Shown: positions 10,904-12,997 of the stretch, piece after piece
Layout of the letters: each line of letters begins with the position of its first letter
Position numbering within the stretch: position 1 is the first letter of the stretch
From: a virus
Lineage: Duplodnaviria; Caudoviricetes
DNA: 50,382 bases
Direction: 5' to 3' (one strand)
Virus record (IMG/VR): IMGVR_UViG_3300024996_000015
Location: 1 to 50,382 of that record
Translations under genes and position numbers: made by a program
Notes under the pieces: model-generated
The model's input: the letters and a program-made list of their open reading frames with translations, nothing else
What the model was told of the DNA's origin: nothing
The model's database searches: none

Positions 10904-11281
10904 ATGATGAAGGACACCTTTAACTATCTCCAAATCCCAGAAGAATTATACCAAGAAGTAGCTCTTACTGGTAGCTCATACATATGTAACCCACCAGTGA
11001 CAGATACAGACATTGACTATACTCTTTACAGCCATAACTGGGATAAGTTGGATGATTGGTGTGAACAGAATTATTTTAAAACTAATTGGGAAGACTATGC
11101 TATAGATGAGTTTAGATCGTACAAACGAGGAGTAATTAATTTGATTGTAACTAATGATGCTACATTCTATAAACGATTCGTAAAGGCAACAGAATTAGCA
11201 AAGCAATTAAATCTTCTAGATAAGCAACAACGAATTGATCTCTTTGATTTTGTAATGTATGAATCTAATATCCAAGCGTAA
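10904..11281 (+). CDS. minimal pol-beta-like nucleotidyltransferase
   Basis: LTGS...DTDID motif (hGS x(n) DxD). Confidence 0.6.
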   Translation: MMKDTFNYLQIPEELYQEVALTGSSYICNPPVTDTDIDYTLYSHNWDKLDDWCEQNYFKTNWEDYAIDEFRSYKRGVINLIVTNDATFYKRFVKATELAKQLNLLDKQQRIDLFDFVMYESNIQA

Positions 11282-11286
11282 ACCAA

Positions 11287-11322
11287 ATGAATTTGATTTC
11301 CTTTGACGTAAATAATACTTGA
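11287..11322 (+). pseudogene. orphaned original 5' end of DNA polymerase (MNLISFDV-NNT*)
   Basis: First 7 residues are identical to the polymerase start at 11861, with different synonymous codons. Confidence 0.85.
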
Positions 11323-11348
11323 CAGGATCTCCTTAATTCTGGCATAAT
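11319..11348 (+). promoter_or_regulatory. sigma70-type promoter in front of HNH cassette
   Basis: TTGACA-18 nt-CATAAT with TG extension; GAGGAG SD follows. Confidence 0.65.
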
Positions 11349-11372
11349 CTTACCTTTAATAGAGGAGAACCT

Positions 11373-11864
11373 ATGCCGTACAAAGATCCAAAAGTATTAC
11401 AAGAATATAAAAATAGATGGAGAAGAGAGCAACGTCTTAAGAGGGGGCTACAGAAACAAGGGCGTAAGCCTCTTACTGAAGAAGAGAAAGTAATCTCTGC
11501 TGAGAAAAAGAAAGTGTATCGTAGAACATGGCAAAAAGAATACAATAAGTACAATCCAGAAAAGAGATTACTATGGGCTGCTAAAAAAAGAGCAAAAGAA
11601 AAAGGACTTCTTTTTAATATAGAAGAAACAGATATTATTGTTCCAATAGAATGTCCCTTCTTGCATATACCATTAGTTAATACTAGGCCCAGAGGAGACT
11701 CTCGTAGAGACATTGCTTCCTTAGATCGTATTGATCCAACCAAAGGATACATAAAAGGTAATGTACAAGTTATCTCTTGGTTAGCAAACTCGATGAAACA
11801 AAACGCAACACCAGAAGAGTTAATTGCTTTTGCAGAAGAGGTACTTAAAAGATATAAACCATGA
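11373..11864 (+). mobile_element. free-standing HNH-type homing endonuclease inserted in pol 5' end
   Basis: VPIECPFL, ASLDRIDPTKGYIKGNVQVISWLANSMK; ATGA overlap with new pol start. Confidence 0.85.
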
Positions 11865-12997
11865 ACTTAATTTCTTTCGATACGGAATGCAGCATTATCA
11901 ACAATGGCGACGCATACCATCCCGACAATAGATTAGTACAAGTAGGTATATTTGAAGGAGAAAACTACTCTACTTACTATAAAGAAGAGATTAATCCTGA
12001 ATGGCTTAAAATTGTATTACATACAGGTATACTTGTAGGTGCTAATCTTAAGTTTGATCTTGCTTGGATGGAACGGATTGGGATTGATACACGCAAGGTA
12101 AAAGTATACGATGTACAAATTGCTGAGTTCCTAATTACAAACCAGACAAAGGCTTTTCCCTCTCTTAATGAAATGGCTGAGAAATATCTAGGCCAGCATA
12201 AGATAGACCAGATAAAAGCACAGTACTGGGATAATGGAGTGGACACTTGGTTTATTCCAGAAGAAGAACTAACTGCCTATCTCCGGGAAGACCTACGTCT
12301 TACCCTTGAAGTCTTCAAGCAACAAGAAGTAATTCTAAAAGAGACTGGTAAATGGAATCTGTTTAAGCTACAATGTCTGGATCTTGTAGTACTTAATAAC
12401 ATGGAATGGAATGGATTACCTTATGATAGAGAAAAGAGTTTAGAGAATGCAAAGGAATTAGAAGATGAGATTTCCAGAATGGTTGCAAACTTTAACCAAT
12501 ACACTGATTGTCCTACTTTTAACCCTGCTTCTGGGGATCATCTTTCTTGTCTTCTTTATGGTGGGACTATTAAGCACGAGTATCGTGTACCCATTGGTAT
12601 TTATAAAACGGGGATCAAAGCAGGCCAACCAAGAAATAAGATCTTTGTGGAAGAATACCCCCAACCAAGACTAGTGGAACCTCTTCGTGGTAGTGAACTT
12701 AAGAAAGAAGGATATTGGTCAGTTGATGAGCAGACATTATCCAGCCTTAAACCGAGAACAAAGGAAGTCAAGCAATTGATCTCCGACATACTAAGACTCA
12801 GCAAATTAGAAAAGCTTAAGGGAACTTACTACGAAGGACTACCAAAGATTATGGATGCACGAGGATGGGAGAACAACTTGCTTCATGGGAAATTCAATCA
12901 GTGCGTGGCGCGTACTGGCCGCCTGTCTTCTAGCCAGCCGAACCTTCAGAACTTTCCGCCAGAAGCGTTGTCATTATGTAGGAGTGAGTATGACTGA
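11861..12997 (+). CDS. family A DNA polymerase, part 1 (3'-5' exonuclease + thumb)
   Basis: ExoI FDTE, ExoII NLKFD, ExoIII YLRED, TGRLSSSQPNLQN. Confidence 0.92.
   Translation: MNLISFDTECSIINNGDAYHPDNRLVQVGIFEGENYSTYYKEEINPEWLKIVLHTGILVGANLKFDLAWMERIGIDTRKVKVYDVQIAEFLITNQTKAFPSLNEMAEKYLGQHKIDQIKAQYWDNGVDTWFIPEEELTAYLREDLRLTLEVFKQQEVILKETGKWNLFKLQCLDLVVLNNMEWNGLPYDREKSLENAKELEDEISRMVANFNQYTDCPTFNPASGDHLSCLLYGGTIKHEYRVPIGIYKTGIKAGQPRNKIFVEEYPQPRLVEPLRGSELKKEGYWSVDEQTLSSLKPRTKEVKQLISDILRLSKLEKLKGTYYEGLPKIMDARGWENNLLHGKFNQCVARTGRLSSSQPNLQNFPPEALSLCRSEYD

Follow-up and report, generated by a model that had tools for sequence, protein, structure and literature searches.

HNH endonucleases are found in introns of T7-like phages, and free-standing endonucleases often cut far from their own genes. 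In phage T4, free-standing endonucleases are described as driving the co-conversion of flanking markers, and where homology is present on one side only, repair gives rise to illegitimate junctions (summarised in PMC2988022); in other phages, nuclease genes are reported to mark exchange boundaries (PMC10448857). Here we analyse an uncultured phage genome (Duplodnaviria; Caudoviricetes) represented by the whole of IMG/VR virus record IMGVR_UViG_3300024996_000015, hereafter the window (50,382 bases, estimated 98% complete). In it, polN, the gene for the N-terminal polypeptide of a split family-A DNA polymerase, directly follows a free-standing HNH nuclease gene, HNH-2, on the far side of which lies a second, truncated copy of the polymerase start. 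We favour, with a probability of about 0.62, the interpretation that this truncated copy (the stub) is the remnant of a resident allele of the D-V-E type, and that the HNH cassette, together with the leader, start and polN of a donor, was recombined in from a related phage. The features of the locus, 5′ to 3′, are as follows.

10904 to 11281, plus strand: ORF-C, an open reading frame (ORF) of 125 amino acids, function unknown, matching phrog_15166 (E 4e-25); its TAA stop forms the first three bases of the first TAAACC.
11279 to 11284, plus strand: first copy of TAAACC, the native polymerase leader, followed by AA and ATG; L035, a relative with an empty site, has this leader too.
11287 to 11310, plus strand: stub, the orphaned first eight polymerase codons (MNLISFDV), assigned to a divergent DVE-type allele; 11287 to 11306 equal an intact allele of run X6 (20/20 bases).
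11311 to 11318, plus strand: 8-nucleotide linker AATAATAC between the stub and the -35 box, the proposed left non-homologous junction of the incoming DNA.
11319 to 11348, plus strand: sigma-70-type promoter of the cassette, TTGACA, 18 nucleotides, TG-n-CATAAT (near-consensus).
11363 to 11367, plus strand: Shine-Dalgarno AGGAG, 5 nucleotides 5′ of the HNH-2 ATG.
11373 to 11864, plus strand: HNH-2, a 163-residue free-standing, PacI-like HNH (beta-beta-alpha-metal) nuclease gene.
11847 to 11855, plus strand: family-conserved end of HNH-2, ...KRY; the last two codons and the stop come from the polymerase leader.
11855 to 11860, plus strand: second copy of TAAACC, with the ATG directly after it and AA absent.
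11861 to 12997, plus strand: polN, N-terminal polypeptide of the split polymerase (3′-5′ exonuclease and thumb).
11879 to 11887, plus strand: exonuclease motif D-x-E of the working copy (codons D7, T8 and E9); the PF01612 match begins at residue 3, and D7 and E9 are invariant.

Read directly, the peptide MNLISFD is encoded twice in the window, from the ATG at 11287 and from the ATG at 11861, as had been reported in a sequence-only reading that preceded this analysis. The first ATG opens a mini-ORF, MNLISFDVNNT, that ends at a TGA (11320-11322), and the second is the working polymerase start, MNLISFDTECSII. Five of the six codons from 2 to 7 differ between the stub and the working start (AAT/AAC, TTG/TTA, TCC/TCT, TTT/TTC and GAC/GAT), each by a synonymous third-position transition, and at codon 8 all three bases differ. 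A simple calculation puts at 6/8568 = 0.0007 the probability that five changes scattered at random over the 18 bases of codons 2-7 hit third positions only. The hexamer TAAACC precedes both copies, a resemblance recorded earlier without its difference in spacing: at 11279-11284 it is followed by AA and then ATG, whereas at 11855-11860 the ATG follows directly. The identical repeats of a target-site duplication are not found here, as 16/21 coding bases agree and the leader differs by 2 nucleotides. A degenerate M-N-L-I-S-F-D pattern matched exactly two sites in the 50,382 bases, both strands included, and none in 100 shuffles, the chance expectation being none. The stub breaks off after codon 8, the codon between the D and the E of D-x-E, so that the earlier placement of the break inside this motif was correct; we take the motif to be Exo I from its presumed counterparts in Klenow and T7 polymerase. 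In Logan assembly X1, an independent assembly of the probable source run, positions 9000-14500 form a single uninterrupted stretch that differs at two bases only, 9926 and 13322, neither of which lies in the region of the repeat and cassette. Since an independent assembly holds the same arrangement, an assembly chimera is ruled out. We also considered whether AATAAT after the stub represents polymerase codons 14-15 following an internal deletion; the match spans 6 bases and is not significant, 13% of random genomic 20-mers sharing at least 7 bases with the polymerase starts.

Contigs of four sequencing runs (X1, X5, X6 and X7) were aligned to 9000-14500 at 85% likeness, and for X5-X7 only the covered parts of this stretch were used as evidence. 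Relatives free of the nuclease gene carry one copy of the start only, as the sequence-only reading would have it. In L035, a metagenome contig with a PolN 97% identical in amino acids, ORF-C is followed by TAAACC, AA and a single polymerase start, with no HNH gene; the first two codons of this start are as in the stub and the remainder as in the working copy, to which it is identical over codons 3-12. A contig of X7 joins 11292 to 11867, which yields the same empty site with a single start. In X6, a contig joins 11306 to 11895 with 14 other letters between, producing an intact polymerase start, MNLISFDCETSVINN, that equals the stub over 11287-11306 in 20/20 bases; the depth of this empty-site contig is 366, versus about 45 for the HNH-bearing contigs of that run. 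In a further relative from IMG/VR, L001 (PolN 66% identical), the gene order is unchanged but all three HNH cassettes of the window are missing, and the polymerase gene starts MTKLLSFDVETSII. One contig of X5, an independent wastewater run, is unbroken from 11164 to 12385 with 40 mismatches and 28 gap letters, and stub, cassette and polymerase start therefore occur together there. HNH-2 is thus present at this locus in the window, X1 and X5, and absent from the same locus in L035, X7 and the X6 empty-site contigs. Natural alleles of both parental types exist: the alpha type, comprising the X6 allele and the MNLISFDVE-type start, and the beta type, L035. Intact polymerase genes beginning exactly MNLISFDVE, which the sequence-only reading had anticipated, occur in four clusters of PolN homologs (P0127, P0131, P0133 and P0137). 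Exact-pattern scans of IMG/VR gave 0 matches to the stub-cassette junction and 0 to the empty-site leader plus start; blastn against phage GenBank entries gave six 60-nucleotide matches and no relative, and a scan of IMG/VR with polC gave no close relative.

Synonymous divergence (dS; Nei-Gojobori method, NG86) was calculated for the window against L035, the single long empty-site relative. Proceeding from left to right, dS is 0.53, 0.09 and 0.16 in successive thirds of the helicase gene, after which comes HNH-1, another of the nuclease genes; 0.81, 0.75 and 0.71 in ORF-A, ORF-B and ORF-C; and saturated in the stub, with 4 synonymous differences plus ACG/GTA in 8 codons, after which comes HNH-2. 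It is then 0.25, 0.34 and 0.31 in three parts of polN; 13/30 bases differ in the first ten codons of polC, the gene for the C-terminal polypeptide, whose remainder gives 0.68, and the gene after polC gives 0.42. Divergence is therefore generally about 0.4-0.8, with two islands of low divergence, each of which adjoins a nuclease cassette on one side only: dS falls from 0.71-0.81 on the left of HNH-2 to 0.25-0.34 on its right, and is 0.09-0.16 directly upstream of HNH-1. The stub lies on the divergent side and the working start within the low-divergence island. Such steps at HNH-2 and HNH-1 are the recombination boundaries, or co-conversion tracts, expected of a free-standing homing endonuclease gene (HEG).

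Because dS steps at the cassette with the stub included on the left, the two starts are best explained as two alleles joined by recombination, not as an in-place duplication. A donor related to L035 would have carried the cassette (promoter, ribosome-binding site and PacI-like HNH ORF) ahead of its polymerase gene, and after a break in the resident polymerase gene, repair would have copied the donor polN, start, leader and cassette. On the right side, exchange would have proceeded through homologous polymerase sequence, with replacement of all of polN, while on the left a non-homologous join just after resident codon 8 would have stranded the old start as the stub. An exchange with homology on one side fits the co-conversion and illegitimate junctions described for T4 in PMC2988022. 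The synonymous recoding proposed by the sequence-only reading holds in that all of the codon 2-7 differences are synonymous; the intact X6 start and the dS step argue instead for natural resident and donor alleles, and the five differences are better read as the ordinary divergence of two functional alleles than as recoding after duplication. We infer both the double-strand break that would have initiated the exchange and the position of the cut. As the low-divergence tract extends through all of polN, the cut could lie anywhere in this gene, and the end of the stub, which would mark where resident DNA stops, need not coincide with the cut site after resection; that the nuclease cuts in Exo I, as had been suggested, we likewise only infer.

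According to this recombination model, the polymerase would now be translated from the incoming start. The TGA of HNH-2 overlaps the polymerase ATG as ATGA, an overlap that proved real, and there is no Shine-Dalgarno sequence 5-12 nucleotides before the polymerase ATG, either in the window or in the empty-site L035. Given an incoming start without its own ribosome-binding site and the ATGA overlap, translation of the polymerase is probably coupled to that of HNH-2, and the proposed dependence of polymerase expression on the cassette is plausible.

Several lines of evidence indicate that the cassette behaves as a unit. The genome contains three HNH paralogs, in ORFs at 6522-7103 (HNH-0), 9411-9923 (HNH-1) and 11373-11864 (HNH-2). 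The promoter pattern TTGACA-N16-18-YATAAT occurs four times in the genome versus 0.16 expected, a number reached by 0/100 shuffles, and three of the four sites stand directly before the three paralogs; the 5′ leaders of HNH-0 and HNH-1 are nearly identical. The promoter therefore forms part of the cassette, and the earlier claim that HNH-2 has a promoter of its own is strengthened. Among the 1012 HNH-2 homologs detected at E≤0.001, 25 were inspected, and in 24 of these the protein ends in ...RY followed by a variable tail of 1-6 residues from the flanking DNA, which places the end of the cassette at TAT 11853-11855 and derives the K-P-stop tail from the polymerase leader. The HNH-2 ORF carries its own promoter, Shine-Dalgarno sequence, ATG and stop, as expected for the expression of a free-standing HEG, and is not in frame with the polymerase, so that it is neither intron- nor intein-borne; an Rfam scan of 9000-14500 for an intron returned only two sub-threshold, unrelated matches (E≤1).

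The fold of HNH-2 is likely that of a PacI-like beta-beta-alpha-metal (His-Me finger) nuclease, and its nuclease activity is presumed on that basis. Matches in PHROGs comprise phrog_3322 ('endonuclease', E 2.5e-33), phrog_1035 ('endonuclease VII') and phrog_3118 ('HNH endonuclease'). A profile built from 25 sequences matches PacI with E 0.0054 over L-D-R-I-D ... G-Y ... N ... N-x-x-K, and D118, N130, N139 and K142, all invariant in the 25 sequences, align with the D, N, N and K of PacI. The AlphaFold (AF2) model (predicted local distance difference test, pLDDT, 85.6) contains a beta-beta-alpha core with strands at 114-119 and 131-135 and a helix at 136-144. PacI is the top Foldseek match of this model (E 0.013, probability 1.0) and the top VIA-align match over 48,161 chains (Z 7.1, root-mean-square deviation 2.7 Å, 81 residues aligned), followed in the latter ranking by Hpy99I, Gme HNH, McrA and Cas9 HNH domains. 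Zinc cysteine clusters like those of PacI and Endo VII are absent, C94 being the only cysteine invariant in the family alignment. A scan of GTDB genomes with HNH-2 found only an unrelated 46% match.

A number of further observations concern the cassettes themselves. In two X6 contigs, base 11343 is T, which makes the -10 box a perfect consensus TATAAT. The HNH-0 cassette (6473-7103) has a perfect TTGACA-17-TATAAT promoter, and the coding sequence of its conserved C-terminal helix overlaps the first 28 primase codons (ATG 7019) in another frame, by 85 nucleotides. The HNH-1 cassette (9360-9926) is located between the helicase gene and ORF-A. L035 (1087-1147) retains no more of this cassette than its 24 leading and 33 trailing bases, and the site is thus the scar of a nuclease gene lost by a clean internal deletion; the remnant now provides AGGGA before the ORF-A ATG. 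At 9926 the record reads ATC at the ORF-A start, whereas X1 and the X6 contigs have G and thus ATG; the record probably carries either an erroneous base or a minor variant here.

Several points weigh against recombination from a related phage as we have set it out. The direction of transfer is read from L035, the single long relative with an empty site. A search by script found a 5′ stub at 0/34 other family loci that could be paired with a downstream gene, and the stub is therefore not a general signature. The joint in X7 has a shorter side of only 30 letters, and the joints are called at 85% likeness in metagenomes. In X6, contigs in which the 5′ part of the HNH gene has diverged by about 14% nevertheless align, to judge from alignment ranges, over the junction from 11300 onwards; a junction that is old, or carried by the element, accounts for this better than a single recent join. 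Cleavage by the nuclease is itself a prediction from its sequence: a Pfam search of HNH-2 produced no match to an HNH model, the fold matches are middling (Foldseek E 0.013; Z 7.1, which the tool itself rates as such), and HNH-2 has Arg (L-D-R-I-D; PacI, V-D-R-S-D) where the first His of a canonical HNH motif would stand. PacI functions without this canonical His.

The alternative that best survives, although we regard it as tentative, is that the cassette homes by duplicating the end of the gene that it enters. The mobile unit would then consist of the linker, promoter, HNH gene, polymerase leader and polymerase codons 1-8, inserted exactly where the nuclease itself would cut, at the boundary of codons 8 and 9 in Exo I; the synonymous differences and codon 8 would render the replacement start uncuttable, and at each homing event the first eight codons of the recipient would become the stub as well as the left homology arm. 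Neither an intron nor an intein would be needed, because the element supplies a replacement gene start. Extended to the family, the same doubtful proposal is that PacI-like HNH genes insert in the terminal codons of essential genes (polymerase codons 8/9, the last three of the helicase, and, in a different phage, the tail of a ribonucleotide reductase, RNR), bringing with them diverged, nuclease-resistant duplicate ends along with a promoter of their own and a coupled start.

This alternative would account for the intactness of the stub, which is perfectly coding and equal to a living allele in 20/20 bases, even though the 14%-diverged X6 contigs seem to share the junction: a neutral relic of such an age, beside a cassette diverged by 14%, should have decayed, and the two observations together suggest that the cassette and replacement end may be a mobile element. 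Gene-end duplication also recurs at HNH-1 and at a nuclease gene of an unrelated IMG/VR phage, L071. The tail of HNH-1, ...HRDL-stop, stands directly before the ORF-A start and repeats the helicase end, ...FRDL-stop, with 3/4 codons synonymously changed; the native helicase/ORF-A junction of L001 is RDI-stop-ATG, and the HNH-1 tail is likewise followed by ATG. In L071 (2300-2860), the GTG start of a 53%-identical nuclease gene overlaps the stop codon of a class II RNR gene; the nuclease ends ...LCPAGHCEL-stop and the RNR ...LACTAAGGCEL-stop, the former end being a diverged copy of the cysteine-bearing C-terminal tail of the RNR. The identity of the HNH-free beta allele of L035 with the working copy over codons 3-12 would fit a resistant empty site. 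Against this, 24 nucleotides make a short homology arm, the cut may lie far from codon 8 given that all of polN appears co-converted, and the junction in X6 is supported by alignment ranges only, the window being the sole HNH-2 genome read at the DNA level. Nor is there a 5′ stub at the 34 other loci: counting the two in the window, one is present in 1/36 pairs (one locus lacking upstream DNA, and many being near-duplicates), and the last three residues match in 2/35 evaluable pairs of a nuclease and its upstream gene. A DNA-level repeat scan of 48 non-redundant family loci had low power, ranking even the window's own repeat at only p 0.03. A 10-nucleotide repeat in L063 was attributed to chance, as it lies inside the upstream ORF.

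The exchange might also have run in the reverse direction, with the segment from ORF-A to ORF-C plus the stub (9924-11310) inserted as a patch where both HNH cassettes were present beforehand. The segment is bounded exactly by the 3′ end of HNH-1 and the 5′ end of HNH-2, as this would require; we nonetheless consider it improbable, as dS against L035 is high outside the segment too (0.68 in polC, 0.53 in the first helicase third and 0.42 in the gene after polC), which makes the low-divergence tracts beside the nucleases, and not the middle segment, the exceptions. Slightly less probable again is an in-place duplication, in which a primary insertion duplicated its target site, as transposons do, and one copy then diverged or was recoded under selection. 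Two direct repeats do flank the inserted cassette, but 5/5 of the differences are synonymous third-position transitions (P about 0.0007), whereas a non-coding stub should drift everywhere, and the version in the stub matches the live X6 allele and the MNLISFDVE N-terminus; the complete difference at codon 8 and the dS step likewise argue against it. An assembly artefact or chance resemblance, for which the only argument is that the record is a metagenome assembly, has a negligible probability given the same stretch in X1, its contiguity in X5 and an expectation of zero chance matches.

The recombined polN forms one half of a polymerase whose division is the rule in this phage group. PolN contains PF01612 (3′-5′ exonuclease), beginning at residue 3, along with the initial part of PF00476, the remainder of which is in the second ORF, and the split is into PolN of about 378 residues and PolC of about 232 residues. 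Searches gave 1904 PolN-like proteins at E≤1e-30 (207-662 residues), the best 120 being nearly all 370-400 residues long, and 513 PolC-like proteins at E≤1e-40. Among the N-termini of these best 120 PolN homologs, D-x-E is found in 113 and is missing from 7, with D-V-E, the commonest form, in 76, D-T-E in 17 and D-C-E in 12. The gap between polN and polC (12990-13217; 3630-3811 in L035) is a variable slot, occupied by a 75-residue ORF in the window, an unrelated ORF of about 46 residues in L035 and 279 other letters in X5; the contents of the slot each start at the same ATGACT overlapping the polN stop. A 656-nucleotide tandem repeat at 3264-4467 of L035, extending across the 3′ end of polN, the slot ORF and the 5′ end of polC, could be genuine or could have arisen in the assembly. 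In another relative (P0364/P0362), a canonical HNH ORF (172 residues) is in frame with the C-terminal two-thirds of PolC (358 residues), a fusion that is a further nuclease insertion in the same polymerase gene.

The polC gene of the window contains an in-frame stop. It starts at GTG 13207 behind a strong Shine-Dalgarno sequence, AAGGAGG, and reads VLVNVDATGL, TAG (13237-13239), LEVNCVAYLSQ..., so that CTT-TAG-CTA (13234-13242) lies in frame inside catalytic motif A. Relatives read DASGLEVNC, and the six bases TAG CTA are extra in the window; these bases are present in X1, and an X6 contig spans 12959-13311 without gaps. TAG ends 4/40 long ORFs in the genome, in which neither a suppressor tRNA nor a second polymerase was found. 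At least eight distinct PolC homologs (P0241, P0248, P0361, P0367, P0369, P0370, P0373 and P0381), 81-99% identical, are called from an internal Met, MQELRDG, downstream of motif A, and from these starts about a third of the near relatives seem to be interrupted there. If peptidyl-tRNA-Leu hopped by +6 from CUU past UAG onto CUA, the exact sequence DATGLEVNC would be restored, and this could thus represent a natural stop-hop. The classic stop-hop construct reportedly had the same CUU-UAG-CUA sequence; a literature search for the phrase 'CUU UAG CUA' gave no match. No RNA hairpin was predicted around CTT-TAG-CTA (z -0.8 and +0.6). A second CTTTAGCTA, at 23048, was discarded as antisense to a gene, and the one match in a scan for the G-L-stop-L-E-V-N-C arrangement was due to chance, lying in a structural gene but on its wrong strand. 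According to PMC5009743, stop-hops between matched codons on either side of a stop have been seen in synthetic constructs, and no natural case is known. Since the stop junction coincides with a recombination boundary, TAG CTA is also possibly a plain recombination scar in a defective or helper-dependent genome.

If the locus arose as we favour, it constitutes a base-resolved natural record of how a free-standing HEG, with neither intron nor intein, comes to lie beside an essential gene or just within it. Public data already hold the nuclease gene, a probably sensitive empty allele of the alpha type, a possibly resistant one of the beta type, and the invaded allele. In this uncultured phage group of wastewater and freshwater, whose family-A polymerase is naturally split, nuclease cassettes act as boundaries of recombination, and the gene-end duplication at two other copies of the family may reflect a general, undescribed way to live inside coding sequence. 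A narrow literature search found no description of gene-end duplicates at homing endonuclease genes.

The closest parallels are the SegF, SegG, SegE and MobE genes of T4, as presented in PMC2988022, in which a nuclease gene with its own expression signals likewise adjoins an essential gene, is present or absent among close relatives, and carries flanking donor sequence in with it. The present locus differs in that the nuclease is PacI-like HNH rather than a GIY-YIG Seg or a Mob HNH, with an activity that is predicted only, and in that one junction is non-homologous, the gene start is duplicated and the polymerase start codon is fused to the nuclease stop. Homology on one side with none at the other junction was also a feature of the one-sided homing study outlined in PMC2988022, although that was a laboratory construct with an intron, whereas here a natural free-standing cassette of an uncultured phage is involved and the resident gene end is kept. 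In the HEG islands of Barth, Dunham and Seed (2023, PMC10448857), identity between related phages similarly shifts at nuclease genes near replisome genes; the tracts there exceed 10 kb, compared with 0.75-1.7 kb here, the nucleases are T5orf172 and IPA-HNH, and the words 'remnant' and 'synonymous' are absent from the available text of that article. I-PfoP3I of Pf-WMP3, as reported in PMC3428280, is likewise an HNH nuclease associated with a phage family-A polymerase gene. Unlike the HNH genes in group I introns of podovirus family-A polymerase genes, the cassette described here involves no intron, and the polymerase gene stays whole because its start is duplicated rather than through splicing. 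PacI (PDB 3LDY and 3M7K) is the closest solved relative of HNH-2 by profile, Foldseek and VIA-align, with D-R-x-D ... G-Y ... N ... N-x-x-K shared between them; HNH-2 differs in having a 75-residue helical N-terminal part, in lacking the cysteine clusters, and in a context that is mobile rather than one of restriction-modification. The process is of a known kind, and the polymerase locus is an unusually clear and testable example of it.

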